A stretch of DNA of 64,000 nt. It comes from an uncultured delta proteobacterium (GTDB lineage: Bacteria > Desulfobacterota > Binatia > Binatales > Binataceae). Both the position numbers and the translations under genes were made by a program. A model generated the notes under the pieces. That model was not told where the DNA came from and made no database searches. It saw nothing but the letters and a program-made list of their open reading frames with translations. Of this stretch, positions 4,543 to 62,004 are shown piece after piece (positions within the stretch are counted from its first letter, which is position 1; each line of letters starts with the position of its first letter). The stretch spans positions 796,395 through 860,394 of the forward strand of contig CAWHTV010000007.1 in the NCBI GenBank assembly GCA_963832395.1, in the 5' to 3' direction.

Positions 4543-4749
4543 AGGTGTCAATTCCTTTCGATGAATCGTGACATCCGTAGCCGGACCTTCGAGTTCGACC
4601 GTTACGAGTTTGACCGTTCTCTTACCCATGCTAGCCTTGAGCACTGGCCCAACGAAATAGTGCGCTCACGATGAGGGGCCGTGCGCGCTCAAATGAGTTG
4701 AATTATGACAAGGACCGAGGAATGAGCGGCGCGGTCGCGGTAAATTCAG

Positions 4750-45043: not shown

Positions 45044-45081
45044 CTTGATGGTTTCCTCAGTCCTGTTCCTGAAAAGCAGGG

Positions 45082-45733
45082 TTAAGCGACGGCCTTGCCG
45101 CCCTCGGTGGAGCGTTGTGCGGGATCGCGGAACAGCCATTCCTCGAGCATCGTGACCGCTCGGCCCAGTTCGTCGGCCGTGCCGCCGCCGGCGAACAGGA
45201 AGCCGATAAGCGAGCCATTGAGCGCCGACACCATGAAGCCGGCGGCCGCCTCGGGCGCGATGTCGCGCGAGCAAAGATTCTTGTCCTGGGCACGGCGGAC
45301 AATATCGATCATCAGTTCGCGATAGCCGTCGTACAGTTTCATCACCTGCGTGGCCAGTTCTTCGGGGACCTTTTCGCCATGCAGCAGTTGGCCGAGGAAA
45401 AAACGCACGGAGGGGGCGTTGTCGCGAACGAAGAGCAGGTAGGACTGCACCAGCTTGCGCAACTGCGCGCGCTCGTCCAGCGCCCCGACCTCCTCGGCAA
45501 AGTCGATAAAATACGGCTCCAACAACCGGTTGAGGACCGCGAGGAACAGTTCCTCTTTGGTCTTGAAATGCCAGAAAATCAGCGCCTTGCTGACCTTCGC
45601 GTCGCGCGCCACCTCGGACATCGAGGTCTCGTGAAAGCCGTGGCGGGCGAACAGGCGGATACCCGCCTTGAGGATTTCATCCCGCGAATCCTGGGGTTTT
45701 TCCGGCTGAAATCGAACGCGACTCAGACGCCAT
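45082..45733 (-). CDS. TetR-family transcriptional regulator at the head of the hpn operon, frame-disrupted
   Basis: ILKAGIRLFARHGFHETSMSEVARDAKVSKALIFWHFKTKEELF (TetR HTH). The ATG at 45733 (MASESRSISAGK) is joined only if one base is corrected in the AAAAACCCC run at ~45690. Confidence 0.75.
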
Positions 45734-47000: not shown

Positions 47001-47857
47001 TCAGATATAGACCTTGGCGAGCCGCTCGAGTTCCGGCGCGTACTTGTCCGGGCCGAGCGCGCCGGCGACCAACGCGACTACGAAGCGGCCGACGCCGAGC
47101 GCCGCGTATCTGCCGAGTTCGTCCTGCGCCTTGGCGCGCTCGTCGCCAACCGAGCCCATCACGGTCAGGTCGAGCCTGCCGTAGTCGCGGCCGGCCTTGT
47201 GGCATTCCTCGCGCAACTCGCGGTCGCCTGTTTCATCTCGTCGACGCTGATGCGAATCGGACACCATCCGTCGCCCCACTTGGCGACGCGCTTGAGCGCG
47301 TTCTTGTCGCGGCTGCCGAGCAGCACCGGCGGCCCGGCCGGCTGCGCGGGGCGCGGATAGGATCGGATCGCGGGAAACTTGACGTACTTGCCCTCGAACG
47401 ACGCTTCGCCCTTGGTCCACAGCGCGCGCATCGCGGCGACGTACTCGGCGGTTTGCGTCCAGCGATGCGGAAAGTCGCCGCCGAGCAGTTCGGTTTCCTC
47501 GCGCAGCCATCCGGCGCCGATGCCGAAGATGAAGCGGCCGCCCGAGAAGTTGTCGAGGCTGCCGATCTGCTTGGCCAGGATCATCGGGTTGTGTTCGGGC
47601 ACCAGGCAGATGCCGGTGGCGAGCTTCAATTTTTTGGTCGCCGCCGCGGCCATGCTGAGCGCGACGAACTGATCGCCCATGTGCGAGTAAATCGGCGGGA
47701 TCGGTCCGCCCTGCGGGAACGGGGTCTTGGGGTTGGCGGGGAGAATCGGATGCTCGGGCACCCACATCGATTCGAAACCCAACTCCTCGGCGGTGCGGCA
47801 AAAGTCGGCCGGGTTGGCGGTGTCCTCGTTAAACGGCATCAGCAGTCCGATTTTCAT
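47001..47857 (-). CDS. Luciferase-like (LLM class, probably F420-dependent) oxidoreductase, frame-disrupted
   Basis: MKIGLLMPF...FESMWVPEHP...ATGICLVPEHNP...LDNFSGGRFIFGIGAGW...ALWT.....FEGKYV.F. The C-terminus GRDYGRLDLTVMG...FVVAL is in ORF 47001-47801 (switch ~47220). Confidence 0.7.
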
Positions 47858-47948
47858 GCTGTCACCCCTTGCGTCTATCAGATGAGAGACGTGATAGACG
47901 GCTGATTTCTGTCAAAAAGCGCCCACGAATGCCAGCCGGAGAATTCGT

Positions 47949-48693
47949 TCACTGAACGCTTATCGGAATTCGCACGTCGAAGGCCGAATCGATCGCCACC
48001 CCACCCTTCATCGCCGGAAAGAAGCGCCACTGCTGCAGAGTGCTGAGCAGAATCTGGTTGAGCCGCGGATCCGAAGTCGGCTTCGCGAGAGTCACTTTCA
48101 CATTTCCGTCGTAGGAGACCTCGAAGTGCGCCACCGCCACCGCTTCAAAGGCCGTATCGCGCAAGTCGTCCGGAATCTTCGGCACCGGCGAATAGATCGC
48201 CCGCGCACCAAGGCTGTCGCTGCCTAGCCCCGACCCGCCGCCGGTACCTTCTTTCGCCGGTGGCGCAGCCCCGCTCTCAGCGCTCGCGCCCGTCGTCGCC
48301 TTGGATGCGGCGGTGCTCGATTCGGCCGGCGCTTTTTGCGTGCCCGAAAGCGACGGCGGGGCTTCCGGCATGATTCGCTCCTTGTGCGGATGCGGCGGCG
48401 GAATCACTTTGCGCCGGACCTCGACGTGAGGCTTGGGCTTGGGTGGCGCCGGCGCGAGCGGATGCGGGGCAGCCGCGGGGCCGCCCTGGAGACCGCCAAC
48501 CACGGGAGGCAACTCGACGATCCGCGCCTCGATGGGTTTGAGCTCCGGCAAGGGTGGCGCCGTCTGCTTGAGCAGCAGTCGCGAAGCCGAGCAGCAGCGC
48601 CACCCAGATCGCGAGCGACAGCGGCGCGATCCAGGCCAGCCGCCGCCAGGGTTCGTCCAGGAACGGCGAAGCAGTTTGAACCGCACCGTTCAT
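47949..48693 (-). CDS. tonB: TonB-family energy transducer, frame-disrupted after the TM helix
   Basis: N-terminal anchor WRRLAWIAPLSLAIWVALLLGFA (ORF 48277-48693). A Pro-rich linker PPLPELKP...PHPLAPAPPKPKPH follows. The C-terminal domain is YSPVPKIPDDLRDTAFEAVAVAHFEVSYDGNV...FFPAMKGGVAIDS. The start overlaps the exbD stop. Confidence 0.8.
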
Positions 48694-49091
48694 TCGCGCT
48701 TGACCGCGATCAGAAAGTGCTCCACCCCGGCCCGGCGCGCCTGGAGCATCGCCTCCACCACGATACCTTCCGGCGCGGCGCCGTCCGCGTTGACCACCAC
48801 TCCCTGATCCTGTCCTTGCAGCATGCTCTTCAGCGCAAATGCCATCGTCGCGAGCGTGGTCGGGGTCTTGTCGAGAAATATCTTGCTATCCTTGGTAATA
48901 GTCAGTGCGACCGGCTCCTTGTGCTGCAGGTTGGGCGCGTCTCCCTGCGGAAGATTGACCGTGATCGAGTTGAGACTCTGCATCGACAGCGACGCCAGCA
49001 TGAACGTCACCAGCAGGAAGAACATCACGTCGATCATCGGGATGATCTCGATTCGGCCGCGCCGATAGCCTCGTCCTTTGCGCAGTTTCAT
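48690..49091 (-). CDS. exbD: ExbD/TolR biopolymer transport protein
   Basis: Intact 133-aa ORF with IIPMIDVMFFLLVTFML...VNLP. It overlaps its neighbours by 4 nt. Confidence 0.85.
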   Translation of the reverse strand: MKLRKGRGYRRGRIEIIPMIDVMFFLLVTFMLASLSMQSLNSITVNLPQGDAPNLQHKEPVALTITKDSKIFLDKTPTTLATMAFALKSMLQGQDQGVVVNADGAAPEGIVVEAMLQARRAGVEHFLIAVKRE

Positions 49092-49780
49092 CGCTTGATC
49101 CTCCCCTCTCGCGGCGTGAGCGGGGTCACGCTGGCGATTGTCTTCTTTCCATCGGTTTCCTCGTCCAGGCGGATATGGTCAATCAACTTCGACCCCAGCC
49201 GCTCCAGATGATCGAGCGCCTGCGACTGCATGCGTGCGAAGAAGTTGAATCCGAACAGCGCGAAGAGCGCGATCAGAAGGCCCAGCGCGGTCGATATCAG
49301 GGCCTGCGCCACGCCCGAAGTCACTTGCGTCGGCGCGACCAGTCCCGACCCTCCGATCACTTTGAAGGCCTGCATCATGCCGGTGATGGTTCCGAGCAGG
49401 CCCATCAATGGCGCCGCGGTAACCACCGTCTCGAGTACCCACAAGCCGCGGCCGAGGCCCTTCTCGATGTCGCCCGCTTCGTCGCCGGCGCGCGATTCGA
49501 CCCACCATGCGGGCTTATCGCGATTGTCGCCAATCACCCCGAAGAACCGCCGGTAAACATTCACCGGCGCGAGCGCCGCCAGTTGCCGGTCGAGATCTTC
49601 CCAGGAAAAGCCGTAGGTCTCGACCAACTCGGCCAGCGAACGCGGCAATCGCAAGCATCGGTAGTAAGCCACCGCCCGGTCGAGAATGATGAGCACGGCG
49701 ACAACTCCGAGAAACAGCAGCGGATATACCATCGCGCCGCCGTATTGCAGCTCACCCAAAGCAGTCCTGAGTTCATTCAT
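49088..49780 (-). CDS. exbB: MotA/TolQ/ExbB proton-channel protein
   Basis: Intact 230-aa ORF with APLMGLLGTITGMMQAF and VAQALISTALGLLIA. Confidence 0.85.
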   Translation of the reverse strand: MNELRTALGELQYGGAMVYPLLFLGVVAVLIILDRAVAYYRCLRLPRSLAELVETYGFSWEDLDRQLAALAPVNVYRRFFGVIGDNRDKPAWWVESRAGDEAGDIEKGLGRGLWVLETVVTAAPLMGLLGTITGMMQAFKVIGGSGLVAPTQVTSGVAQALISTALGLLIALFALFGFNFFARMQSQALDHLERLGSKLIDHIRLDEETDGKKTIASVTPLTPREGRIKR

Positions 49781-49837
49781 CGCTAAATCCTCGCGTGCAG
49801 TCTCTTGCGTTCACGTCAGCCCGGCATCTTCGGTGCT

Positions 49838-52232
49838 TCACTGCACGCTGGTCCGGCTGAACGAAGGAAGGTCCCATTTGATTCCGCCGAAGAAGGCGCG
49901 GCGCGGACCGTATTGCGCGGCGAAGACGCCGATCCCGGTGCCGTTGCGAATCTGGTACGTGCGATCGTTGAGATTGACTACCGCGGCGCGCACTTCCATC
50001 GCGCCGGCATTGGGCAGAACGAAGCGCTTGGTGATTCCGGCGTCGATCTGGATGTAGTACGGCAGATTGCCCGTGTTGGCGAAGCCGTCTCTGAGTCCGC
50101 TGCCGTAGATTCCGTCGATGCTGAACGTGAATCCCTGCCAATTGTAGACCGCGCCGGCCGAGGCGGAGAAAGTCTGGTCGTGATCGAGGAAGATATAGTG
50201 AGTACTGATATATTTGAGTTCATCGGGAGCGAAATTGAATTGCCCGGACTCGACCTGGGTGCCCTGTGCGACGCTGTAGTCGAAGTTCTCGTACAGATAC
50301 AGATTTTCGTGAGTGTATGAGCTGGTTTGCTCGACGCCGTAAACGCGGCCTTTGGCGTAGTTGAAGGTTTCGAAAATCAGCGCCGGTCCGAACTGTCCCT
50401 CGTCGATCAGGTCGCGCCGCCTTCTTGTAGTACGAGTCGATCCCAACGTTGAGTCCGGGAATTATCTGCTGCGTTACCCCGGCATCGAAATAGTGGTCGC
50501 GCTCGACCGTCGGATTGCCGTTGCCAAGCGAAGCCGGCGCGCCGGTAGTGGTCGCGAATTTCTGAATCGACTCGACCGTTACGAGTTCGGTCGGTGGCGG
50601 CGTGAAATAGCGGGCATAGGCGGCGTGGAGCGTGGTGCCCTTGAAGAGATTGTACACCGCGCCGACCCGCGGGCTCGCCTGGTCGGCGCGCGTCAGGCCG
50701 TCGTAGAGGTCGAAAGCGCACGCCATAGTTGATCGTGAGCTTCTCGACCGGCTTCCATTCGTCCTGCGCGTAGACACTGTAAATCCAGGTCTGTAGCGCC
50801 TTGTTGTCGACGATCGAGATCGGAACGGTCGACGGAATCCCGGTTACCTGATCGATCGGGAAGGTCGCCTCGTGATTGTCGATCTCCGCGCGCTCGGAGT
50901 CGAAGAAGCCGCCGAGGCGAAACGTATGCGTCGCGAACGCCCGGTAGGTCGTATCGACCTGGACGCCGTTTCCCCAATCGCTCCGGAATACTCTGGAAGC
51001 GGCGCCGTTATAGATCAGGTCGCCGTCGAAATCCGGGTAGAACGAGACCGTCGAATAGCGGCTGAACGGGCGCGATCTGATAGTCGAACTCGGAGCCGAT
51101 AGTGCCCTGAAGAGCGAATACCCCGAAATAGTTCTGCTCGAACTGGTTTTCATCGACGCCGGCCGACGGATAGACCGGAACTCCCGAGAGCGCAAAGACC
51201 TGCGGCTGGTCCGGGATTCGCCGGAATCTGAAAGTGATTCACCGCCGATCCCGTGATCAGACTCAGCCGCGTCGTCGGGCTCAGAAAATACGAAAAATAG
51301 CCGAATCCCTGTCCCTGGTAGGACTGATCGTGAATCGGCGAGGGACCCGGCGTCGGCGGCTCGACGCCGCGGGTGGTGCTGAAGTATTGGCCGGTCACAA
51401 AGTAGTTGAAATTGCCCTGCGAGCCGCCGTACTCGAAGCTCGGTTGAATCGTCGACCGCTGCCCGCCGTAGAATTCGACATCGCCGCCGTTGTCCAGCAA
51501 TCCGTCCTTGGTCTTGATGTCGATGATGCCGGCGGTGCGCAGTCCAAACTGTGCCGGAAGCGCGCCGGTCAGCAGGCTGATGTTCTGCGCGAAGCGCGGG
51601 CTCATCACCTGCCCAAAGCCGGTGATGCCCTCCGGCAACTGAACCCCGTTTATCCGGTACTGAAGGTTGGCATGGTCGCCCCGGACGTGGAGTTGGCCGA
51701 ATGAATCCTGCACCACGCCGGGCGCCTGAAGCAGCACCTGGTTGAGCGCGGTATTGCTGCCTTGGGGCAAATCCTGAATCGCTTTCTCACTGAAGCGGTA
51801 AACGCTGCCGCCGGTCTCAGGCGACAGGGCGTTGCGCGCCTTGTTCAGGCGCTGCGCGACCACCGCCATGCTGAGCGCCGCTTCCGACTGAAGCGCGAGC
51901 GTCAAAGGTTTTGCGCCCTGCCCCGTGACGTTGACGATCGCGGTCGCGGTCTTGAAGCTCGTCTTCGCGGCGACGATCGCGTAGACCGCGGGCGCGATGC
52001 TGGCGAAGGTGAAGCGGCCCTCGGCGTCGCTTTTCGCTTTCGCGACGATCTTGCCCGCGCTGTTCTGAAGTTCGAGCCTGGCGCCCGCAAGCGGCCTGCC
52101 AAGCGCGTCGGTAACTGTCCCAGTGATGGTTTTTCTCGCCGGCTTCGACGCCTGTGCGGCTTCAGCCGGCGACACAAATAGCTGGGTCAACAGAGTTGCC
52201 AACCCAAGCAAAAGGATCGGGAACGATCGCAT
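49838..52232 (-). CDS. TonB-dependent receptor with N-terminal carboxypeptidase-regulatory-like domain, heavily frame-disrupted
   Basis: Signal peptide MRSFPILLLGLATLLTQLFVSPAEA. ITGTVTDALGRPLAGARLELQN...GRFTF. The plug region is ALNQVLLQAPGVVQDSFGQLHVRGDHANLQYRINGV...GIIDIKTK. Barrel segments are spread over ORFs 51150-52412, 50407-51195, 50220-50777 and 49838-50446 (at least 4 switches). Confidence 0.8.
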
Positions 52233-52347
52233 CGCGTACTCCTCCAATGCTAAGCGTTGCGCCGCCGTGATCTCGCTCGCGCGGCGCCGCACGTGGCCAA
52301 AAAAAGGCCACGCGCATCGACTATTCAGCTTTTCGAAACGGGGGAGT

Positions 52348-52644
52348 TCAGACCGACGCGGGCGGAGCCCTGCCGAAGAGATGCGAAAGGTACGAGGAAC
52401 GCGGCGCGGCACTTGCCGCGCGAGGAGCCGTCAATTCCGTCAGCGCCGGCGCCGTCGGATGAGGCGTAACGACGAATGCGGCCGGGCTATGGAAGCGAAC
52501 CAGGCAGAGCGCGCAAAGGCCGTCAACGCTGACGGCGGCGCTCGTAGCATACTTCTGCTGCGACGGGAGAGGATGGAGATGCGCGGCGCCAACAGACTGC
52601 GCAAGCAACAGGATAGCGGCTGCAAAGCCAGCTATCCTGCGCAT
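52348..52644 (-). CDS. Small exported protein, DUF2946-like (CxxC, His-rich N-terminus)
   Basis: MRRIAGFAAAILLLAQSVGAAHLHPLP...GLCALCLVRFHS. It sits directly upstream of the TonB-dependent receptor, a position I remember as typical for DUF2946. The family call is from memory only. Confidence 0.4.
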   Translation of the reverse strand: MRRIAGFAAAILLLAQSVGAAHLHPLPSQQKYATSAAVSVDGLCALCLVRFHSPAAFVVTPHPTAPALTELTAPRAASAAPRSSYLSHLFGRAPPASV

Positions 52645-52814
52645 CCAGCGTCGGCGATCCGTCTTGCGACCTGGCTTGGATGTTAGGTGCATTATATTAG
52701 CTGCCGCAAGCCATCGCCCGCGGCGCTTGCGCTTCGCCCACAGACTTAGATAAATTTGTCGGCTTTCGTTGCATCGGTCAAGTTCAGCTGGCCGGACGGC
52801 CCAGACGATGTACG

Positions 52815-54469
52815 ATGCCAGTCAGAAAGGATTCATCCAGGATGCTGAAGCATCAGCTTTTCACTCGACGAAAGTTCATCACTCGACGACAATTCATGGT
52901 GGCGAGCGGCGCGCTCGTGGGAATCACGATGCTCGGCGGCAGCCGTGCGCCTCTGGATGCTGCCGAAGATGAAGCTAGCACCGATCGATACGCGCTTACT
53001 CTCGGTTATTCCGAGCGCAAGTTCGGCGAATTTCGTCTACGAACGCGAACTTACAACGGCAGTTGGCCGGGCCGTTGATAGTCACGCGGCCCGGACGCAA
53101 CCTGCGCATCGCAGTCGTCAACGGGCTTCCACCGAATCCGCCGGCGACACCGCCGCCGGGAATCGATCCGGAAAACAATCCATACGATTTCAATACGACG
53201 AATCTTCATCTGCACGGCATGCAGGTGATTCCTCATCTGTTTGCGCCGGTCGGCACGAGCAACCCGGCCTCGCGCATGATCGCGATTAACTCCGGGCAAA
53301 GGCTGACCTACGATTTTCGCCTCCCCGACGACCATCCGTGCGGACTCTATTGGTATCATCCGCACCATCACGGGTCCGCCACGGTGCAGGTCGGCGGCGG
53401 GATGGCGGGCTTGATTCTCGTCAAAGGTTCGATCGACGAGGTTCCGGAAATTGCCGCGGCGCGCGATGAACTGCTGGCGATTCAGAATCCCAAGGTGAAT
53501 CCGCTTGGGGACGGAAAATGGGGATGGGAACCGATCGCCTATAAATCGGCCGCTGAGGGCGGCTTTTCATTCACGACGGCGATCGAGTTCATCACGGTCA
53601 ATGGTCAGCCGGTCATGCTGATCGATCGTCGAGGCAAGAAGCCGGCTACGACCGCGGGCAGGCTCAAGACCTTTCGCATGAAGCCGGGCGAGGTGATGCG
53701 GCTCAGAATTCTGAACGGGACCGACGGCATCCCGACGCAATTGGTGCTGCCGGGGTTCGAAGTCTTCGTCATCGCGCAGGACGGGGTGAACTTGCTTAAG
53801 CCGGAACGGGCCGCGGAGGATGCGAAAACCGCGATCCGGATGGCGCCAGGAAACCGGACCGAATTGCTGATTCGCGCGCCGCGACATCCGGCCTCGGCGG
53901 TACTCAGCGCGCTGCCCCAGATGGCATCGTCGCCCGCACTGCTAAGCGAGGCGATGGGCGAGATGATGGCGACGCCGGAGATCAGGCTTGCGAGTTTCGC
54001 CGTGGCCGGGGCGCCGCGCAGGATGGAAATTCCCGAGACCCTGCCCCCACCGCGCCGCGAATATCCGTTGATTGCCGACAGCGAAATCGTCAAGCGGCGA
54101 CGCGTGGAATTCACCATGCGGACCGGCAGCAAGCGCATCCTGACTGGCCTCGAATTTTTGCTCAATGGAAAGCTCTACCAGGAAACGCGCGTCAACACCT
54201 CGGTGAAGCTCGGCACCGCCGAGGAATGGACGCTCGCCAACAAGTCCGACGGGATTCATCCGTTCCACATGCACGTGAACTCGTTCGAGGTGATCGGCAC
54301 GCCGTGGGATCCGAACTATCACCGCCTGCACGATACGATTTGGCTACCGCCGTTTTCGGAAACGAAGATGCGCGTGCGGTTCAAACAGTGGCAGGGCAAA
54401 TCGGTCTATCACTGCCATATCCTGCCGCACGAGGACTCAGCCATGATCGCTAACTTTCTGATTGGATGA
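52815..54469 (+). CDS. Tat-exported multicopper oxidase, frame-disrupted near the N-terminus
   Basis: Twin-arginine leader TRRQFMVASGALVG. The four copper motifs are TNLHLHGMQV, LYWYHPHHHG, HPFHMHVNSFEV and YHCHILPHEDSAMI. There is a switch at ~53065 (YNG-Q-LAGPLIV). Confidence 0.85.
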
Positions 54470-54521: not shown

Positions 54522-54998
54522 TCACTTCCAGCCGAAAAAATCGTGCGCCCAGATGAAATGGCCGACGCCCGCCGCACGCGCCGCCGCGGCGTCGATCTCC
54601 TGATCGCCGACCATCGTCGAGCCCGCCATATCCACGCCGTAGGTCGCGCCCAACTCGGTCAGCATCCCGCCCTTGGGCTTGCGGCACGCGCATCGGTCGG
54701 CATCGTCGTGCGGACAGATCTGCCATCCGGTCACGATGTCGCCGAGCTGGCGATCGAGCTCGCCGATCGCGGCTTCGACCTGTTCGAGGCTAAGCCGCCC
54801 GCGCGCGATGCCGGCCTGGTTGGTGACGACGAAGATCAGATGATCGCGTATCGGGGCGAGCTTCTCGGCCACGCCGGGCAGCAGCTCGATCACGATTTTT
54901 CCGTCGGCGCCAAGCGGGAGCTGGCGAGTGTCATCCATCTTCACCAGCGTCCCCGCGAGGTCGCAGAACAGCCCGCGGTTTCCAGCATCCTCAGCCAT
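54522..54998 (-). CDS. HAD-IIIA phosphatase of the GmhB (heptose-bisphosphate phosphatase)-like type
   Basis: LFCDLAGTL (motif I variant), VVTNQAGIARG, Zn-loop CPHDDADRCACRKPKGGML and MVGDQEIDAAAARAAG. The ATG at 54998 lies inside the 575-aa track ORF. Confidence 0.7.
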   Translation of the reverse strand: MAEDAGNRGLFCDLAGTLVKMDDTRQLPLGADGKIVIELLPGVAEKLAPIRDHLIFVVTNQAGIARGRLSLEQVEAAIGELDRQLGDIVTGWQICPHDDADRCACRKPKGGMLTELGATYGVDMAGSTMVGDQEIDAAAARAAGVGHFIWAHDFFGWK

Positions 54999-55024
54999 TG
55001 CCTCAACTTCTCTATGTTGCCAGT

Positions 55025-56512
55025 CTAGGGAGCGTTGCGCCAGTCGAGATGGTCGCGGACGTGGGCGAAAACCTCGTCGAGAATCTCGACCCCGGCTTCG
55101 GCCTGCTCGCGCGTGATGACCAGCGGCGGGTTGATCCGCATGCGCGGGAAGTAGCCCATCACCAGGAGGCCGCGCTTGAGCGCCTCCTTGAAGATGGTCT
55201 CGGTTATCGAACGGCCGAGCATCTCCTTGGTCTTGCGATCGCGCACCAGGTCGAGCCCGATCAGCAGGCCCTTGCCGCGCACGTCGCCGACGAATTCGTA
55301 TTTCTCCTTGAGCCGCATCAGGCGCTCGAGCATGAACGCGCCGACGATCGCGGAATTTTCGACCAGCCCTTCGCGCTTGATCGTGCGCAACGTCTCGGCG
55401 ACCGCCACTGCGGCCAGCGGATTGCCGCCGTAGCTCGACGACGACGCGCTCGGCTTGCCGAACGGCTCGCTCCGCCCCAACTCGTCGCTGAGCAACACGC
55501 CGGAGACCGGGAAGCCCGGAGCCCATCCCCTTGCCGACCGTCATGATGTCGGGCTCGACGCCGCTGTGCTCGATTCCCCACATCCGCCCGGTACGGCCGA
55601 AGCCGGTGATCATTTCGTCCGCGATGAGCATCGCGCCCTGCTCGTGCGCGAGTTCCTTCACCGCGGGCAGGTAGTCGTCGGGCGGAATCACGTTGCCCGC
55701 CGTCCCTTGCATCGGCTCGACCAGCACCGCCGCGAGCGCACCCGCCGAACTATGCTTGAGCTGCTGCCGCGCGAAGTCGACGCAGTACATCCCGCACTCG
55801 GGATATTCCAGCTTGAACGGGCAGCGATAGCAGTCGGCATACGGCACCACGTACTGGCCGCCGGGCAGCGGACCGTAGCCCTGCTTGGATTCGTCGCCGA
55901 TAAGTCCGATCACGCCGCCGGTCTTGCCGTGGAAGCCGCCCCAGAAGCTCAACACCTCGTGCCGCTTGGTTTTCGATCGCGCGAGCCGGAGCGCCGCTTC
56001 AACCGCCTCGGCGCCGCCGCTATACAGATGCGCGCGGTTGAGGCCGGCGGGCGCGGCCTCGCCGAGCATCCTGAAGGCCTCCGCGCGCTCGGGCGTGGCG
56101 AAGGTGCCGACGATGAGCCGCGAGGCCTGGCGCGAGAGCGCCTGCGCCAGCGCCGGATGGCCGTGACCGAGGCTCGCGACGGCGACGCCGGCAAAAAAAT
56201 CGACGAACACGTTGCCGTCGACGTCGGTCGAGCGTCGCGCCCTCGCCATGATCGAACGCGACGCCGGCGAGCAGCGAGATACGCTGGCGGCCGGGCGCGA
56301 TATGGCTCTGCTCGTCGGCGAACAGCGCGCGCGAATTCGGTCCGGGAACCGCGGTGGATGATTTTCGGCTGGAGACCGGGCCCGCGCGGGGCCTGCGATT
56401 CATTCGCGATCGCCGATCCGTTGGCGGTCTTGGATCCGTTGGCGGTCTTGGGTCCGTCCGCGACCTTCGATCCGCCGGCCGTCCTCGGCGTCGGCGTTTG
56501 AGGTTTGCTCAT
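55025..56512 (-). CDS. Class-III (PLP) aminotransferase with a low-complexity N-terminal extension, frame-disrupted
   Basis: DVDGNVFVDFFAGVAVASLGHGHP, SGGAEAVEAALRLAR, FHGKT, EPMQGTAGNVIPP, LIADEMITGFGRTGRMWG, DIMTVGKGMG (PLP Lys), SYGGNPLA. The segments are in ORFs 55949-56512, 56020-56403, 54522-56249 and 55025-55498. Confidence 0.8.
56415..56486. repeat. Four tandem 18-bp units (two perfect, two degenerate) encoding the (T/V)A(N/D)G(S/P)K repeat at the aminotransferase N-terminus
   Basis: gatccgttggcggtcttg at 56415-56432 and 56433-56450, then ggtccgtccgcgaccttc and gatccgccggccgtcctc. On the minus strand it translates as GGSKVADGPKTANGSKTANGS. Confidence 0.85.
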
Positions 56513-56549
56513 GCTGCGGTCTGCCTGCGCCCTCCTGGAAAAGTATGGC

Positions 56550-57395
56550 TCAGAAGCCCTGGCGCGGCCGGCGCGCGAGCATCAGGCAGCGCCGCGCAAT
56601 CGCGCGGGCAGCGGCCTCGCGTACCCGGCTGAAGCTGGGCCAGTCGTTGAAATCGATCATCATAAACCGCTCGCCGTCGATCACCGCATCGCCGCCCCAC
56701 GTCTCGAGACCCAACGCGGTGGCGGCAGCCGCGGCGCTCCGCGCCAGTTCGAGCCGCACCTGGTCGGACATCGAACTCTGTTCCCCCTTCCCGCCTTCTT
56801 CATCCAGCGCCGCGAAGTATTCGCCGCCGCTGACGCCGTAGAACTTTACCACCCTGCCCTCGACCGCCTGCTGCACGTAGGCGACCGGCACTCCGCGCTC
56901 GGCCATCCCGGCCAGCGCCGAGCGCAGCGCGCCACGGCTTTCTACCCGCTGCACGTCGTCGGGCGCAAGCGCATGCAAATCGCCGCGCTTGACGAACATC
57001 GGCGCGTCGAGGTCCAGCACGCCGAGCGGCGACAGGTCGGGCGGGCGCGAACCGGTCCTGACCAGCGCGCCAGTCGGCACGGGGACGCCGGCATGGACCA
57101 GGCCGGCGCACAGGAGATCGCGGTAGCAGTTGCGAATCGCGAGCGCCGAATTGACCGCGATCGCGCCCTGCTGCTCGAGCGCCACCAGGCGACCGAGCGC
57201 GCGCTCACCCTGGCACATCGCGAGCACCAGGTCGGCGCCGGCCGGTGAATCGTCGACCAGGCGCGCGGCGCTGATGGCGGAGACTTCAACGCCATGGCGC
57301 TTGAGCTCGGCCAGCACCGCGTCGAGGATCGCGGCGTCGTGCTCGACCTTGCCCGGCGAGAATTCAGTCTCGCGATAGACGCCCAGCGCGCGCAT
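56550..57395 (-). CDS. ATP-grasp-fold enzyme (ligase or kinase; specificity unknown)
   Basis: Intact 281-aa ORF with MFVKRGDLHA, VAYVQQAVEGRVVKFYGV and GGDAVIDGERFMMIDFNDWPSF (C-terminal ATP-grasp strand/loop pattern). Confidence 0.55.
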   Translation of the reverse strand: MRALGVYRETEFSPGKVEHDAAILDAVLAELKRHGVEVSAISAARLVDDSPAGADLVLAMCQGERALGRLVALEQQGAIAVNSALAIRNCYRDLLCAGLVHAGVPVPTGALVRTGSRPPDLSPLGVLDLDAPMFVKRGDLHALAPDDVQRVESRGALRSALAGMAERGVPVAYVQQAVEGRVVKFYGVSGGEYFAALDEEGGKGEQSSMSDQVRLELARSAAAAATALGLETWGGDAVIDGERFMMIDFNDWPSFSRVREAAARAIARRCLMLARRPRQGF

Positions 57396-57397
57396 CG

Positions 57398-58169
57398 TTA
57401 TCCGGCGCTCCCGTCTGGCTTGCCGCTCTCGCTCCGGCTGTGCATCGGCTCATCGTCAATCATCGCGCGCGCGGCGGCAAGATCGGCCGCCTCGTCGACG
57501 TCGATCGTCGCCTCGAGCTCGATCGCGGCGAGGCGCATCCCGCTCGCAACCGCCATCGCGAGCAGCTTGCGCATCGCGTCGAGGCGCTCGGCGCGCGCGC
57601 GCGGCGCAAAATCGAAAATCGCCGCGGGCAACCAGTAGAAGCCCGCCGTGACCATCGCGCTCTGCCGCTCGCCGAGCGCCACGATCGTGCGGTCCGGCGC
57701 GACCTCGGCGAACAGCGGCCGCTTGTCGCCACGCCATCGCACTACCGCGAGCGCGCCGTCGAAGCGCGCCGCGTCGCCGCCGGTCAGCTCCAGCGCGCTC
57801 GCGGCGAAGCGGCACAGCTCAGCCGCATCGACCACCGCGTCGACCGTGGCGAGCAGAAAATGCCGGGCGCCGCGCATGTGCTCACCCAGCGCAAACAGCG
57901 ATTCCATCGAACTCGGCGTATCGCGCACCTGGAGTTTCATCCATGGCGGAATCGCGGACCGCGCGGGCCGCGAGGAGCCCGGCGGTCTCGGAGTTGACCA
58001 GCGCCACGACGGTCTCGGCACCCGCCCGATGCAACATTCGCGCCTGCCGCACCAGCATCGTCTCGCCCCCAAGCTCGACCAGCGGCTTGGGAAGATCGTT
58101 CACCGCGCCGCGCAGACGCTCGCCGCGGCCGGCCGCAATAATGCGCGCCGCGGAACGCCGGCTTACCAT
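57398..58169 (-). CDS. Sugar/alcohol-phosphate nucleotidyltransferase (NTP_transferase fold), frame-disrupted
   Basis: RIIAAGRGERLRGAVNDLPKPLVELGGETMLVRQ (GxGxRL...PKPL signature) in ORF 57882-58169. The remainder (FLLATVDAV...FYWLPAAIF...IDVDEAADL) is in ORF 57398-58072 (switch ~57960). Confidence 0.7.
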
Positions 58170-58914
58170 TTTCAGATCTCTTCAACTCATCGAGCGTATC
58201 GATCGTATGGTCGGCCAGCGCGGCCGCCTCTTGCGCCTGCGGATGCTCGCCGGGTCCTGCGTGCTGCGCGCGCAGCCAGATCGAGCGCATGCCAAGTTTG
58301 CGCGCAGGCGCGCAATCCTTGTGCAGCGAATCACCCACCATCGCGACCTGGTTGTGCGGCAGATCGAGCACCTTGAGCGCGGCCACGAAGATGCGCTCGT
58401 CGGGTTTGAAGACACGCATGTGCTTGGAGTCGATCGCGACCTGGATAAGCTCGCGGATGCCGGCCTCGAACAGGACGACCTGCAGGTTGCCATAGAAATT
58501 GGAGACCACTCCGAGCTTGAAGTCGTGCGATAGCTCCTTGAGCAGCTCGCGGCTGCGTGCGAGTCCGTCGGCCGACTCCTCGGCGAAACCGGACGCGATT
58601 CGATCGGCGAGGCGATGACGATCCTCGCCGAGGCTCGCGAGATGCTCGCGAACGCTGTCGGGTCCGTGGCGATGGAGATGGTCGAACTGATGGGCGACGA
58701 GAGTCCCGACCAGCTCGCGCAGGCTGTGGCGATGAATCTCGTCGCCGGCCTGGTAAGCGGTGCGCGTGGCATGCGAATAGGCAACGTCCAGCTCGGCACG
58801 GCTAAGCTGCACGCCTGCGGCATGGTAATGGCGCACGAAACGGTCCAGCCAATGGTGTGGATGGTCGAGCGTGCCGCCGAAGTCGAATAAAATCGCCCGG
58901 GTGGGACTGGCCAC
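58170..58914 (-). CDS. HAD-IA-type hydrolase; 3' end unresolved
   Basis: AILFDFGGTLD (motif I variant), GVVSNF (motif II), VFKPDERIF (motif III Lys) and MVGDSLHKD (motif IV). The ORF has no stop before 57937. In the adjacent frame a TGA lies 12 nt upstream of the NTP-transferase ATG. Confidence 0.65.
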
Positions 58915-59114
58915 GGCGCCAGCTTAGCAGCCCTCGCATTGGGCCTCTACAAATGAGACCGTTAAGAACTGGGACGGCTCGCGGTTACGCAAAAGTTAAG
59001 CGTTATGAACAGGCGGGGGACGGGTGGTGGACGAACAGGCGGACAGACCGCACGGTCAGTACATTGACTCTGCGCTTCAATTAGTCTAAAAGCCTTTGTT
59101 CAATAAGGCTTTAT

Positions 59115-60311
59115 TTGATTGAGACAGCTTTAATCAACGTTCCCGCCCGCGCGGGCAATATGATCTTCGGGCGATCGCTGCTGGAGCGCCTGATGCTTAT
59201 TTGTCAACGCGCGGGAGTGAAGCGATTCTTTATCGAGGCCGGCGACCCCGAGGACGGTGGCCTGCGCGCCTCTTTGGGCTCGTTCCGCGACCATCCCGAG
59301 ATCAATTTTGTCGGCTCGTTCGCCGAGGTCCTCGAGCAACTGCCGGCCGACGCGCCTTGTATCGCGCTTAAGGGCAACCTGGTGCTGGCGGCTTCGCAGT
59401 TGCGCGGGCTGCTCGACGAGCCAGGCCGCCCGGCCCGGCGAAGTCATCAGCGTCGGGAGCACCGATGTCGCGCGCGGCGGCAGCGTCGCGGCGGGGCCGC
59501 TCAGGCTGTTCTGGTCGAGGGCTCCAGCGCTGTGGCCTCGCAGCTCAAGCCGAGCGGGCAGTTGCCGTTCGCGCTCGACGGGCGGCCGACGGACGTTCAG
59601 GAGGCTGAACGTCGATCTGGCGCGCGAGCTGCGCCGCGAAAGCGCCGACAAGGACGCGCTGATGGCGCGATGGGTCGACCGGCGGCTGTCGTGGCGAATC
59701 AGCCTTCGCCTCGCGCGCACCGCAATCACGCCCAACCAGGTGACGCTCGCCAACACGGCGCTGGGGCTGCTGAGCGCGTGGCTGTTCAGCTCCGCGGGCT
59801 ATTGGCCGCGGGTGATTGCGGCGCTGATGTTCCTGGTCTCGGTGACCTTCGATGGTGTTGACGGCGAGCTGGCGCGGCTCAAGATGACCGAATCGCCATG
59901 GGGCGCGCGGCTTGACGTGATGACCGACAATCTGGTGCATGTCGCGATCTTCGCCGGCATCATGACCGGGTGTTATCGGGCGAGCGGCAGTCGCGCCTAT
60001 ATCTACCTGCTCGCCATTCTGCTGGTCGGCTTCGGATTGTGCGCGCTCACGACCTGGCGCGCGACTCGCGTCAACGGCGAACGGGCCGAGCAGTTCATCG
60101 CGCAGGTTGAACGAGTGAGCGGCCGCGACTTCGCCTATCTGCTGGTCGTGTTGGCGCTGCTCGACAGGATTAACTATTTCGCCTGGGGAACGGCATTTGG
60201 CACCTACATCTTTGCCTTCGTGATGTGGTGGATGACCACGCATCGGACGACGGGCAGAGCGAGCTCGAACGGCGGCCCGCGCAAGCGCGGCATCGCCAGG
60301 AGGCAGTGTGA
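59115..60311 (+). CDS. NTP-transferase-like domain fused to a CDP-alcohol phosphatidyl/phosphotransferase membrane domain, frame-disrupted
   Basis: N-domain [39 protein letters not shown]. The transferase signature [23 protein letters not shown] is an exact DG(x2)AR(x8)G(x3)D(x3)D. At least 5 TM helices follow. There are three switches (~59425, ~59510, ~59605). The track ORF runs to 60372, but a TGA at 60309-60311 in the third frame would give a GTGTGA stop/start overlap with the next gene. Confidence 0.7.
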
Positions 60312-61634
60312 AGAAACCGCGAATCCTGCTGGTACAACCGACGACCATCCATCTGGACGGTACGCCGCATAAAACCCGCTGGCGCCTCATCATGGGTTTG
60401 ATGATCCCGCTTTTGGCGGGGCTGACGCCGGACGACTTCGACGTGACGCTATGCGATGAGCGGCTGGAAGAACTCGACTTCGACGGCGGCTGGGACCTGG
60501 TCGGCATGACCACCACCATCGGCGCCTCGCTGCGCGCCTACCAGCTCGGCGATGAGTTTCGCAAACGCGGCATCCCGGTCGTGATGGGCGGGTTCCACGC
60601 CACGCTCCAGACCGAGGAAGCGCTCAAGCACGCCGACGCGGTGGTCCAGGGCGAGGCCGACCTGGTATGGGAGCCGCTGCTGCGCGACTGGCAGGACGGC
60701 AAGCTCAAGCGGATCTACAAGGCCGACAAGCTGCACGATCTGAAGAACCTGCCGCGCCCGCGCCACGAACTGCTCAAGCTCAACCGCTACCTGTTCAAGG
60801 CGGTGCCGGTGCAGGCGAGCCGCGGATGCCCGTACCGCTGCTCGTTCTGCGAAATCCCGGTCTTCTACGAGGGCAGCTATCGCACCCGCCCGATCGAGGA
60901 CATCGTCGAGGAAATCAAACAGGTCATGGCGGTCACCGGCTTTCGCCGCTTCCAGTTCATCGACGACCAGATCACCGGCAAGCACAAGTTCGCGCGCGAA
61001 CTGTTCCGCGCGCTGATTCCGCTCAACATCCGCTTCTCCTGCCTGTGGACCATCAACTCCAACCATGACGAGGACCTGCTCGAACTCGCGGCCCAGGCCG
61101 GCGTGTTCCACGTCAATATCGGAGTGGAATCGATAAGCCAGGACAGCCTGCTATCGATGAGCAAGATCCAGAACCACACCAAGGACTACAAGAAACTGCT
61201 CAAGCGGCTGGAGCACTACGGGATTTACTATTCGCTCAACTTCCTCTTCGGACTGGAGGAGGACCATCCGCAGATCTTCGACGACACCCTCGACTTCCTC
61301 CACGAGGTCAAGGCGCCCGAGGCGTTCTTCAATACGGTCACGCCGCGCAAGGGCACGCCGATGCGCACCAAGCTCGAGCAGGAAGGCCGCGTCATCATCC
61401 CCGACGCCGACATGTACACCAACAACTTCCGCTGCATGTTCGTGCCCAACAAGCTCTCGCCGCAGCAGGTCGAAGAAGGGCGTGTGGCGCTGCACCAAGG
61501 AGTTCTACTCGTTCAAGTCGATGTTCAAGCGGCTGCTGATGCCGCCGGGCAAGTTCACCTGGCAGGGGCTGACCGAGAATATGTTGTTCTGGTACGGCGC
61601 GAAGCGGCAGATCGACCCGGTCGACTATTACTAA
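60308..61634 (+). CDS. Class-B (B12-binding domain) radical SAM enzyme, frame-disrupted near the 3' end
   Basis: AGGAGG 4 nt before the GTG at 60308. RILLVQPT...VGMTTTIG...[10 protein letters not shown] is a B12-binding-like Rossmann. [16 protein letters not shown] is CxxxCxxC. The C-terminus [19 protein letters not shown]...DPVDYY-stop at 61634 is in a second frame (switch ~61480). Confidence 0.8.
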
Positions 61635-61665
61635 GACCGCGCGCCGCTATAGTCACTGACGCAAC

Positions 61666-61701
61666 GGGGCGGGAGCGGGCCGATCGGCCGGCTCCCGCCC
61701 C
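61666..61701. terminator. 36-nt near-perfect GC palindrome (possible bidirectional terminator)
   Basis: ggggcgggagc (61666-61676) pairs with gctcccgcccc (61691-61701). The centre ggccgatcggcc is itself palindromic. It lies 32 nt after the radical SAM stop, with only a short T tract (cttt) following. Confidence 0.5.
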
Positions 61702-61727
61702 GAGCTTTCCTAAGCGACGGGACTTTC

Positions 61728-62004
61728 ATGCTCCTAAGCGGCTGGGAGATTGCCATCAAGGCCCGGCTAGGCCGCCTCAGCATCGCTGGCAACGATCCTG
61801 AAGCTTTTGTGGCGCAACAGGTAAGCGCAAAGAATCTCAGTATCCTGCCGATACATCTAACCATGCGCTGAAGACCTATGCGCTGCCCGATCATCACAAG
61901 GATCCCTTCGATCGGCTCCTGGTGGCTCAATCCATCATAGAGGCCTTGCCGCTTCTAAGCGCGGATCGGCACCTGGCCGAGTATCGGGTGCGCGTCATCT
62001 GGTA
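61728..62004 (+). pseudogene. 5'-truncated PIN-domain (VapC-like) toxin remnant with one frame switch
   Basis: LLSGWEIAIKARLGRLSIAGNDPEAFVAQQVSAKNLSILPIHLT, then in the next frame ALKTYALPDHHKDPFDRLLVAQSIIEALPLLSADRHLAEYRVRVIW-stop. The N-terminal ~45 aa of a PIN domain (first acidic residues) are absent. An in-frame TAG lies at 61650. Confidence 0.65.

Follow-up and report, generated by a model that had tools for sequence, protein, structure and literature searches.

A conserved gene cluster of Binataceae that may make and transfer a CDP-activated aminocyclitol-phosphate lipid head group

What does a bacterium of the family Binataceae make with a compact gene cluster that brings together a nucleotidyltransferase, an ATP-grasp protein, an aminotransferase, a cytidine diphosphate (CDP)-alcohol phosphotransferase, two HAD-family proteins and a B12-binding radical SAM protein? 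The cluster occupies positions 54522-61634 of a 64-kb stretch of DNA from an uncultured delta proteobacterium (positions 796,395 to 860,394 of contig CAWHTV010000007.1, assembly GCA_963832395.1; hereafter the window). A first-pass annotation, made from the sequence alone, had read it as an eight-gene pathway for an amino-polyol head group or solute held by a phosphodiester. Inositol lipids are considered rare in bacteria, and the only proposed CDP-inositol lipid route that we know of, in Bacteroides and Prevotella, has been described with three genes. We propose, with a probability that we put at about one half, that the conserved cluster builds a CDP-activated aminocyclitol-phosphate head group and transfers it to a membrane lipid.

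Gene content and coordinates were taken from a six-frame translation and Pfam scans of the window. The minus-strand operon begins with a gene for a HAD-IA family protein (58914 to 58170; Pfam Hydrolase, HAD_2 and Hydrolase_like, and tblastn to the intact HAD proteins of loci L001 and L003), followed by a MobA-like nucleotidyltransferase of the NTP_transf_3 family (58169 to 57398; frames joined by tblastn to L001 and L003), an intact ATP-grasp protein of 281 amino acids with no Pfam match (57395 to 56550), a class-III (omega-type), pyridoxal phosphate-dependent aminotransferase (56512 to 55025; Pfam Aminotran_3 on fragments) and an intact, GmhB/histidinol-phosphatase-like HAD-IIIA protein of 158 amino acids (54998 to 54522; NCBIfam matches below cut-offs). 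A divergent intergenic region of 200 nt and 53% G+C, common to both operons (58915-59114), separates this run from two plus-strand genes, one for an AF2299-type CDP-alcohol phosphotransferase with an N-terminal extension of about 170 residues (59115 to 60311; Pfam PF01066) and one for a B12-binding radical SAM protein, 441 residues long when intact (60308 to 61634; Pfam Radical_SAM and B12-binding domains). Spacers of 2, 37 and 26 nt separate, in turn, the nucleotidyltransferase, ATP-grasp, aminotransferase and GmhB-like genes. The stop of the HAD gene overlaps the start of the nucleotidyltransferase gene, as it does in relatives, with indels specific to the window at this junction, and the start of the radical SAM gene overlaps the phosphotransferase stop by 4 nt. 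The order, strands and coordinates first given for the two runs, their short gaps or overlaps, and the pairing of a B12-type radical SAM protein with the CDP-alcohol transferase are all borne out. The count of eight needs amending: the interval contains seven genes, and the eighth member, a Gfo/Idh/MocA oxidoreductase recognized by homology to oxidoreductases of other phyla, lies displaced outside it, on the minus strand at 45927-46994.

Conservation argues that these genes belong together. The ATP-grasp protein has 716 database relatives, of which those with an organism name are from Candidatus Binataceae, phylum Binatota. On contigs whose ATP-grasp protein is 98%, 90% and 63% identical to that of the window, the same seven genes are intact and keep their order and orientation. 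When one genome per species was scanned, 595 encoded ATP-grasp relatives were confirmed, and 80 loci were kept for comparison; the loci compared were 20 of the Binataceae type and 62 others, 28 with and 34 without the aminotransferase. As counted by tblastn, the ATP-grasp gene is present in 20/20 Binataceae-type loci, the HAD, nucleotidyltransferase and aminotransferase genes each in 19/20, the CDP-alcohol phosphotransferase gene in 18/20, and the GmhB-like and radical SAM genes each in 17/20. Because it recurs in 17-20 of the 20 loci, the arrangement is not due to chance, and the cluster is syntenic across the Binataceae. Lack of synteny in other genomes had been named at the outset as grounds for giving up a common pathway; we found synteny strongly conserved.

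The conservation extends well beyond this family. At 50% clustering the ATP-grasp family has 929 representatives, and the loci kept span the Bacteroidota, Desulfobacterota, Verrucomicrobiota, Gemmatimonadota, Myxococcota, Methylomirabilota, Elusimicrobiota and Ignavibacteria. The HAD protein, the nucleotidyltransferase, the ATP-grasp protein and the AF2299-type CDP-alcohol phosphotransferase form a core that is conserved in many phyla. In the 34 loci without an aminotransferase, mostly from Bacteroidota, the order is typically nucleotidyltransferase, ATP-grasp, CDP-alcohol phosphotransferase, HpnL-like membrane protein and HAD. In the 28 loci with the aminotransferase, which represent Syntrophobacteraceae, Desulfobacterales, Verrucomicrobiota, Gemmatimonadota, Myxococcota, Methylomirabilota, Elusimicrobiota, Ignavibacteria and one betaproteobacterium, it is typically HAD, nucleotidyltransferase, ATP-grasp, aminotransferase, Gfo/Idh/MocA oxidoreductase, CDP-alcohol phosphotransferase and HpnL-like protein. 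A gene for inositol-phosphate synthase (MIPS) lies within 10 kb in 15/34 loci of the former version and 6/28 of the latter. Moreover, fusion proteins tie the steps of the module together functionally. The nucleotidyltransferase is fused to the ATP-grasp protein in six representatives (P0146, P0161, P0186, P0192, P0199 and P0206), and all three of HAD, nucleotidyltransferase and ATP-grasp are joined in P0211 (802 residues). Further fusions link ATP-grasp to aminotransferase (L036), HAD to nucleotidyltransferase (L040) and CDP-alcohol phosphotransferase to HAD (L057), the last of these also noted in Prevotella veroralis (Heaver et al. 2022, PMC9246714).

These observations leave little room for the view that housekeeping pathways (heptose, arginine or lysine, phospholipid) have come to lie side by side by accident, or that the cluster is a set of decaying pseudogenes, a view that we find hardly credible. 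Annotation at the level of families would allow the former, the proteins being GmhB-like, acetylornithine-aminotransferase-like and RimK-like, and the frameshifts that fill the window copy speak for the latter. However, order and content are kept over 60-98% protein identity in Binataceae, the core is found across phyla with multiple fusions, and no protein reaches a curated equivalog cut-off. The lipopolysaccharide (LPS)-heptose pathway (GmhA, HldE, GmhB, HddC) was rejected: the GmhB cut-offs are missed, the motif is DLAGT and not DxDGT, and the window cluster has no SIS or PfkB gene. LysW-dependent lysine or arginine synthesis was rejected as well, with 18 against 143 bits for rimK_fam, 218 against 700 for LysJ, and no LysW, LysZ or LysY among the conserved neighbours. 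A division of the genes among separate known pathways, which the first-pass annotation had named as a ground for refutation, finds no support: curated cut-offs are missed, and fusions tie the genes together.

The frameshifts, remarked on from the beginning, are real in the window copy, and relatives are intact in every gene. They consist of one +1 insertion in the nucleotidyltransferase gene (near 57952), three in the aminotransferase gene (near 55519, 56229 and 56359), several in the phosphotransferase gene (about 59418, 59503/59510, 59616, 60247/60251 and 60281) and one in the radical SAM gene (near 61480). As a reference we used L085, a short-read metagenome contig 91% identical to the window, in which all seven genes are intact and relative to which the breaks are isolated +1 insertions. 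Insertions occur in the window at about one per 600 nt, and unrelated flanking genes (TonB-dependent receptor, multicopper oxidase, panC, PIN-domain gene) are broken too; between 46500 and 64000 they interrupt most open reading frames (for example at 48579, 51067, 52307, 62085 and 63115), beyond homopolymers as well. Because unrelated flanking genes carry the same kind of insertion and the L085 genes are intact, the frameshifts point to an assembly or base-calling artefact of the whole window rather than to decay of the cluster; the alignment to L085 led us to reject the pseudogene reading. Between the radical SAM gene and panC, at 61650-61930 on the plus strand, is the frameshifted remnant of a PIN/VapC-like toxin gene, and in relatives the cluster is flanked by pan and coa genes (panB, panC, panD, coaX, coaBC). 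The divergent region is indeed AT-richer than its surroundings, as first noted (53% G+C against 64-68% in the two flanking arms), and has one hairpin, at 59089-59112. A regulatory RNA or promoter in it was rejected, as an Rfam scan of the window found no family and the region 58915-59114 has no match to the sigma-70 consensus.

The strongest single clue to the chemistry is the pairing of the aminotransferase with the oxidoreductase. The aminotransferase (Aminotran_3, 322 bits on the intact protein of L003), whose nearest solved structures are archaeal enzymes resembling γ-aminobutyrate aminotransferase, is unusually conserved, with 50-63% identity across phyla. Outside the Binataceae its gene is followed by that of a Gfo/Idh/MocA oxidoreductase, to which the window homologue is 32-42% identical. 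Among the non-Binataceae loci, the oxidoreductase is found by tblastn in 26/28 loci with the aminotransferase and in 0/34 without it. Since such strict co-occurrence is what would be expected if an alcohol were oxidised to a carbonyl and then transaminated, the pairing fits the conversion of a hydroxyl to an amine in the head-group precursor. The best NCBIfam model for the oxidoreductase is the inositol 2-dehydrogenase IolG, whose cut-off its 74 bits do not reach. The amino-polyol first suggested for this cluster draws real support from this co-occurrence and from the presence of inositol-phosphate synthase beside related clusters. The window aminotransferase has an N-terminal extension of low complexity that is absent from 63%-identity relatives (450 against 494-500 residues); KTANGS-like repeats in it are encoded by 3.4 tandem copies of an 18-nt unit (56414-56474). 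In one Binataceae locus (L012, 12258-13635), a gene for a flavin adenine dinucleotide (FAD)/BBE-type oxidase, divided between two open reading frames, lies between the aminotransferase and GmhB-like genes, and a gene for a TetR regulator precedes hpnH.

Activation and transfer would fall to the nucleotidyltransferase and the CDP-alcohol phosphotransferase. The intact L003 orthologue of the former scores 46.5 bits with Pfam PF12804. The nucleotidyltransferase matches NF041135, the IPCT domain model, weakly over the full length and is presumed to be a cytidine triphosphate:polyol-phosphate cytidylyltransferase. The CDP-alcohol phosphotransferase combines a degenerate nucleotidyltransferase-like cytosolic domain with a catalytic domain of six transmembrane segments and keeps the motif Dx2DGx2ARx8Gx3Dx3D, found in a 26-residue stretch of the window frame, the residues of which are invariant in two alignments (A2 and A3). 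A search of the PDB returned AF2299 (E = 5e-16) and IPCT/DIPPS (5e-8). The best NCBIfam model, IPCT/DIPPS (NF041135), has a cut-off of 580 bits and reached only 63, confined to the transmembrane domain; archaetidylinositol-phosphate synthase scored 57 bits, also below its cut-off. Structure prediction was run on database homologues; an AlphaFold model (mean confidence, pLDDT, 80.8) was aligned by Foldseek to AF2299, 4mnd and IPCT/DIPPS over its full length, cytosolic domain included, and two homologues carry a precomputed PF12804 match. The protein had been described as a fusion of an NTP-transferase-like domain to a CDP-alcohol phosphotransferase, which holds at the level of the fold; the GxGxR signature is absent from the N-terminal domain. 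With no nucleotide-binding signature in that domain, and with the nucleotidyltransferase encoded by a gene of its own, the protein fits an enzyme that would take a soluble CDP-alcohol as donor. The long phosphotransferase also occurs in a second context (L091, L092 and L093), the HAD, nucleotidyltransferase and ATP-grasp genes not being nearby. Orthologues at 61-64% identity are found in clusters with the order MlaA, GT21 glycosyltransferase, CDP-alcohol phosphotransferase, LPG_synthase_TM, CopD, sterol-sensing MMPL protein and sulfotransferase, the last accompanied in L091 by genes for the synthesis of 3'-phosphoadenosine 5'-phosphosulfate.

The closeness of the transferase to AF2299 and IPCT/DIPPS also suits another product. 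The Binataceae version could make a soluble phosphodiester solute like di-myo-inositol phosphate, joining a CDP-(amino)polyol to a second polyol phosphate, after which one HAD protein would dephosphorylate the product. This would parallel the logic of IPCT, DIPPS and phosphatase, and the Binataceae are without the HpnL-like putative flippase of other phyla, whereas a second protein of HAD type has been added. Yet their transferase is 50-59% identical to that of a Syntrophobacteraceae locus (L025) whose cluster includes an HpnL-like protein, some Binataceae have an MlaC/HpnM-like gene between the two operons, and in all its other genomic contexts the module keeps company with lipid genes. Moreover, such solutes are known from hyperthermophilic settings, and the sources of Binataceae metagenome-assembled genomes are soils and sediments. 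Because the conserved neighbours in other genomes concern membrane lipids, a solute is less likely than a lipid head group, and we consider it improbable. Of the two products first proposed, the lipid genes around related clusters therefore favour the head group.

The ATP-grasp protein belongs to a new family that Pfam does not cover, whose fold we take as certain from structure prediction. A phmmer search of the PDB with the protein found nothing significant, and a family profile and a fold search were used instead. The AlphaFold model (pLDDT 95.5) matched Ddl, LysX and ITPK1 in Foldseek at a TM score of about 0.7, and the profile found PsnB (2e-8), ITPK4 (3e-6), RimK (4e-5) and ITPK1 (3e-4). 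An invariant motif of the family, [IV]DxN[DA]WPSF, resembles the Mg site of inositol phosphate kinases of the ITPK type (DLNYLPSF in ITPK4). Pfam votes over 105 members were split (14 for ATPgrasp_ST, 11 for RimK and 10 for Ins134_P3_kin, the best at 3e-5), and on the L003 protein PF05770 gave E = 0.18, below the gathering score, with ligase families matching equally. We propose and favour a role as a cyclitol or cyclitol-phosphate kinase, with a ligase as the alternative. A kinase is favoured because the protein is repeatedly fused to the nucleotidyltransferase, a usual pattern for kinases, as in HldE, because of the ITPK-like motif, and because the gene is kept in Bacteroidota that lack the amine and whose plain inositol-phosphoceramide would imply that no persistent acyl group is added. 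That a kinase should be needed when the synthase already supplies a phosphate could be explained in two ways. Oxidation and transamination may act on the free cyclitol. Alternatively, the phosphate may be placed at another position, with inositol 3-phosphate (Ins3P) converted to Ins(1,3)P2, CDP-Ins3P and lipid-P-Ins3P in turn and the 3-phosphate then removed; such removal after transfer would fit the fusion of CDP-alcohol phosphotransferase to HAD.

Neither HAD-family protein is, to judge from its motifs, a textbook phosphatase. In this superfamily the second Asp of motif I (Asp+2) is typical of phosphomonoesterases and mutases and is replaced in ATPases, phosphonatase and dehalogenases. Motif I of the window HAD protein (58880-58900) is DFGGT, in which the nucleophilic Asp is kept and Asp+2 is replaced by Gly. 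The form DxGGT (DFGGT, DYGGT, DLGGT, DMGGT) is found in 61/66 module HADs from loci L001-L084. Motif I of the GmhB-like proteins is DLAGT or DLGGT, and in the window copy (54960-54980) it is DLAGT, with Ala for Asp+2. In the sequences inspected, motifs II to IV are present. The GmhB-like protein scores below the NCBIfam cut-offs for GmhB (82.5 against 178 bits for NF006506, 61 against 150 for TIGR00213) and for the histidinol-phosphatase domain (78.6 against 84). Its gene, present in 17/20 Binataceae loci and 0/62 others, is an addition restricted to Binataceae. Thus, of the logic of nucleotidyl activation, CDP-alcohol transfer and dephosphorylation that had been recognized in the cluster, the first two steps stand, with a separate nucleotidyltransferase and a transferase whose motif is intact, and dephosphorylation becomes less secure because the HADs lack Asp+2.

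A GmhB-like protein together with a nucleotidyltransferase is typical of envelope glycan pathways, and the best Pfam vote of the ATP-grasp family is for the "sugar-transfer associated ATP-grasp". Conceivably, then, the module attaches a phospho-(amino)polyol to a polymer of the cell surface, be it LPS, the capsule or a chain of the teichoic-acid type; inositol has been found in the capsule of B. thetaiotaomicron, with changes in capsule genes in a MIPS mutant (Heaver et al. 2022, PMC9246714). What makes this decidedly improbable in our view is that genes for glycosyltransferases, polymerases, Wzx/Wzy or ABC exporters are not conserved with the module, the conserved neighbours being genes for lipid synthesis and lipid transport.

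The radical SAM protein is 87-95% identical across Binataceae, has the motif CPYRCSFC, and counts the aminoglycoside enzyme AprD4 among its closest solved relatives. An identity as HpnJ or HpnR was rejected, as the NCBIfam scores (80.8 against 577.6 bits and 51.4 against 650) are far under the cut-offs. True HpnJ and HpnH proteins were found elsewhere. It is a Binataceae-restricted addition to the module, presumably a tailoring enzyme, whose place in the pathway rests on operon structure. In L010 and L014 its gene is flanked by two paralogues of the CDP-alcohol phosphotransferase. Homologues outside the family were found in L087, L088, L089 and L090, and the gene stands alone in Geotalea uraniireducens and Desulfobacca; only in L090, where it follows MMPL, MlaC and MlaA genes, does a non-Binataceae homologue have lipid-transport neighbours.

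To which lipid might the head group be attached? In the window, the oxidoreductase gene lies directly upstream of hpnH (44042-45274), beyond which are genes for a polyprenyl synthase, a Zn-dependent alcohol dehydrogenase, shc, dxr, hpnC/D-like, hpnE and hpnA; the squalene-hopene cyclase gene shc (39763-41742, 741 bits) is about 4 kb further on. In the Binataceae loci L061 and L012 the oxidoreductase gene directly follows the GmhB-like gene and precedes hpnH. A 7.5-kb block of the window (47001-54469), with a luciferase-like gene and genes for a TonB-like protein, ExbD/ExbB, a TonB-dependent receptor and a multicopper oxidase, is absent there in these two loci. Because the three genes are contiguous in L061 and L012, the block is an insertion into a once contiguous arrangement, the original order of which was HAD, nucleotidyltransferase, ATP-grasp, aminotransferase, GmhB-like, Gfo/Idh/MocA, hpnH and, further on, shc. 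The minus-strand dehydrogenase gene between shc and that for the polyprenyl synthase (41842-42855) has weak best matches to threonine dehydrogenase and scyllo-inosose 3-dehydrogenase, and a protein with a CruF-like carotenoid hydratase domain (32650-34263, minus strand) adjoins the hopanoid genes.

A similar linkage, with complete sets of side-chain genes, is found in unrelated lineages. In Desulfobacterales (L036) the order is HpnK, HpnI, HpnJ / HpnA (509 bits), HpnH (505 bits), HAD, nucleotidyltransferase, ATP-grasp::aminotransferase, Gfo/Idh/MocA, CDP-alcohol phosphotransferase, HpnL-like and, further on, an HpnN-like protein; in Myxococcales (L039) it is HpnL-like, CDP-alcohol phosphotransferase, HAD, nucleotidyltransferase, ATP-grasp, aminotransferase, Gfo/Idh/MocA, HpnJ (736 bits), HpnK (247 bits) and HpnI. 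An HpnJ gene adjoins the HAD gene in L023, L026 and L073. Just upstream of the HpnJ-plus-module cluster of L023, from Desulfoferrobacter suflitae, is a PglZ phosphatase gene of a type 3 bacteriophage exclusion (BREX) system (3216-5315, 855 bits), probably part of an unrelated defence island. An HpnL-like LPG_synthase_TM protein is encoded in 36/62 non-Binataceae loci. Serine palmitoyltransferase (720 bits) is present in eight loci, among them loci of Verrucomicrobiota and Dyadobacter, where GNAT-like and epimerase-like genes adjoin it; MlaEFD genes lie within the clusters of Ignavibacteria, and genes for HpnN-like RND transporters also occur near the module. The first-pass annotation had taken the hopanoid neighbourhood as a sign of elaborate membrane-lipid chemistry; the linkage to hpn genes is a recurring physical one and more than background. 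The module lies beside genes for ceramide synthesis in some phyla and beside those for hopanoids in others, and appears agnostic to the lipid anchor.

The linkage raises the possibility that the module serves to decorate extended hopanoids, either by placing a phospho-(amino)cyclitol on a hydroxyl of bacteriohopanetetrol or a related polyol, or through action of the aminotransferase and oxidoreductase on the side chain in the manner of HpnO. The joining of the module to side-chain genes in three unrelated lineages (Binataceae, Desulfobacterales and Myxococcales) and the HpnJ genes beside HAD genes would be explained, as would the company that phosphotransferase orthologues keep with GT21 (the HpnI family), MlaA and sterol-sensing MMPL proteins, and the radical SAM homologue of L090 with MMPL, MlaC and MlaA. 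HpnL, moreover, a protein without known function, is enriched near shc. However, the module with aminotransferase and oxidoreductase also lies among ceramide-synthesis genes in Verrucomicrobiota, and the module occurs in Bacteroidota that are not known hopanoid producers. An aminotransferase that also lies among ceramide genes is unlikely to have an HpnO-like role specific to hopanoids, and in view of these contexts the enzyme cannot be linked to ribosylhopane in particular. The papers searched describe no phosphorylated hopanoid and we know of none, and the linkage could reflect co-regulation of envelope lipids. On balance we think a dedicated hopanoid function unlikely.

We return to transfer of an aminocyclitol phosphate to a membrane lipid as the preferred function. 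A cyclitol, most likely myo-inositol from inositol-phosphate synthase, would be oxidised by the Gfo/Idh/MocA enzyme and converted by the class-III aminotransferase to an aminocyclitol. The ATP-grasp protein, acting as a kinase, would phosphorylate it, the nucleotidyltransferase would add CMP, and the AF2299-type phosphotransferase would then move the phospho-(amino)cyclitol onto a lipid alcohol. The two HAD-family proteins may deal with the remaining phosphate, and the fusion of CDP-alcohol phosphotransferase to HAD suggests that one of them acts directly on the product of the transferase. The B12 radical SAM protein, coupled translationally to the transferase only in Binataceae, may provide a lineage-specific tailoring step. 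As to the acceptor, the neighbouring genes point to ceramide in Verrucomicrobiota and Bacteroidota; in Binataceae, Desulfobacterota and Myxococcota they suggest a context related to hopanoids.

Several observations weigh against this proposal. The oxidoreductases match IolG weakly (64-74 bits against a cut-off of 355), and class-III aminotransferases are not the usual inosose aminotransferases. Over most of its length the ATP-grasp protein is most like PsnB and RimK, which are ligases, and its likeness to ITPK is confined to the Mg-site motif. Neither HAD-family protein has the Asp+2 general acid/base expected of phosphomonoesterases (DxDx(T/V)). Radical SAM homologues 53-58% identical to the Binataceae protein stand alone; around those of Geotalea, Desulfobacca and a metagenome-assembled genome of Binatia, no genes of the cluster were found. 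A homology search of the 64-kb window found no MIPS homologue, in agreement with the first-pass annotation, and no HpnL-like gene; because another Binataceae locus (L007) has a MIPS gene about 5 kb from the radical SAM gene, the Binataceae can make inositol phosphate. No phospho-aminocyclitol lipid was found in our literature searches, and the Bacteroides cluster on which the comparison below draws is itself a proposal (PMC9246714).

The analysis bears on more than this locus. The comparison suggests that the CDP-inositol-type route belongs to a far larger family, spread over many phyla, with two overlooked conserved parts, the new ATP-grasp protein and the HpnL-like membrane protein, and an aminating branch formed by the aminotransferase and oxidoreductase. 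Should the proposal hold, it would provide genes for some of the "unidentified aminophospholipids" that have been reported from many bacteria of soils and sediments, and a first functional context for HpnL-type proteins. It is tempting, if rather doubtful, to go further and envisage an undescribed lipid class, in which an aminocyclitol (inosamine-type) phosphodiester is carried by an extended hopanoid in Binataceae, Desulfobacterota and Myxococcota, and by ceramide in Verrucomicrobiota. Such a "phospho-hopanoid" would be the hopanoid counterpart of inositol-phosphoceramide. On this view three of the enzymes would also be of a new kind: the ATP-grasp family as cyclitol kinases, the HAD proteins that lack Asp+2, and the B12 radical SAM protein with a novel tailoring activity on head group or lipid. 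The phosphodiester-linked composite hopanoids that the linkage brings to mind would matter for the interpretation of hopanoid biomarkers. Cultivated carriers of the module exist, among them Phocaeicola vulgatus and Desulfoferrobacter suflitae.

How does the cluster compare with known systems? It shares with IPCT/DIPPS and AF2299 a nucleotidyltransferase-like cytosolic domain joined to a six-transmembrane transferase, the catalytic motif, the best matches in sequence and fold, and the use of a soluble CDP-alcohol donor that we propose. It differs in the N-terminal domain, which is without a nucleotide-binding signature, in the separate nucleotidyltransferase gene, in the score (63 against 580 bits) and in its lipid neighbours. 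To ITPK1 and ITPK4 the ATP-grasp protein is linked by its fold (TM score about 0.7), a similar Mg-site motif and weak profile matches, but these fall under the Pfam gathering score, and PsnB, RimK, LysX and Ddl match equally well or better. The hopanoid side-chain set (hpnH, hpnG, hpnI, hpnJ, hpnK, hpnO, hpnL, hpnN) is physically linked to the module here and in other phyla, includes a class-III aminotransferase (HpnO) and resembles it in the use of B12 radical SAM proteins (HpnJ, HpnP, HpnR), and HpnL-like proteins accompany the module outside Binataceae. In contrast, the radical SAM protein of the cluster is neither HpnJ nor HpnR, the module also occurs without hopanoid genes, and described hpn sets have no nucleotidyltransferase, ATP-grasp protein or CDP-alcohol phosphotransferase. 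Validamycin-type pathways to C7N-aminocyclitols employ a cyclitol kinase, a class-III aminotransferase acting on a keto-cyclitol phosphate, a nucleotidyltransferase and a HAD phosphatase. By description alone they follow the same plan, in which a cyclitol is phosphorylated, transaminated, activated as a nucleoside diphosphate derivative, coupled and dephosphorylated; however, coupling is by a pseudoglycosyltransferase, the kinase is not an ATP-grasp protein, and the products are secreted antibiotics.

The closest parallel is the "putative alternative inositol lipid cluster" of Bacteroides vulgatus, which was described as comprising BVU_RS13095 (NTP transferase), BVU_RS13105 (CDP-alcohol phosphatidyltransferase) and BVU_RS13115 (HAD), near MIPS (Heaver et al. 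2022, PMC9246714). It was invoked to account for inositol-phosphodihydroceramide in species without the B. thetaiotaomicron genes, the functions being stated as unconfirmed, and the B. vulgatus product is plain inositol-phosphodihydroceramide (PMC9246714). Our searches of the literature for CDP-inositol with ATP-grasp, inosamine phospholipids, aminocyclitol head groups, CDP-alcohols together with hopanoids, and inositol-bearing hopanoids returned nothing relevant beyond this paper; a paper on gromomycin proved unrelated. In Phocaeicola vulgatus ATCC 8482 (L032) we found the order nucleotidyltransferase, ATP-grasp, CDP-alcohol phosphotransferase, HpnL-like, HAD, MFS, PfkB and MIPS. The ATP-grasp and HpnL-like genes are probably the two unmentioned genes between the BVU tags, which the L032 order and the spacing of the locus tags fit; neither the tags of the two in-between genes nor the term "ATP-grasp" is in the text of Heaver et al. 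2022 (PMC9246714). The first-pass annotation could match the composition of the window cluster to no pathway, a statement that no longer stands for the core, which, judged on L032, corresponds to the B. vulgatus cluster in both homology and gene order. Homologues of four window proteins are shared, namely the nucleotidyltransferase, the CDP-alcohol phosphotransferase, the ATP-grasp protein and the HAD protein, whose DxGGT motif is the same. Their relative order is kept in loci such as L032 and L041, both clusters have the ATP-grasp gene between those for nucleotidyltransferase and CDP-alcohol phosphotransferase, and the same CDP-alcohol (Kennedy-like) logic is proposed. On the other hand, protein identities to the window are only 23-35%, the window adds the class-III aminotransferase, the Gfo/Idh/MocA oxidoreductase, the GmhB-like HAD protein and the B12 radical SAM protein, its transferase has about 380-400 residues against about 315, and it lies beside hopanoid genes without an adjacent MIPS or an HpnL-like gene. 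The window cluster is thus distantly related to one that has been described but not characterised, and it is differently equipped.

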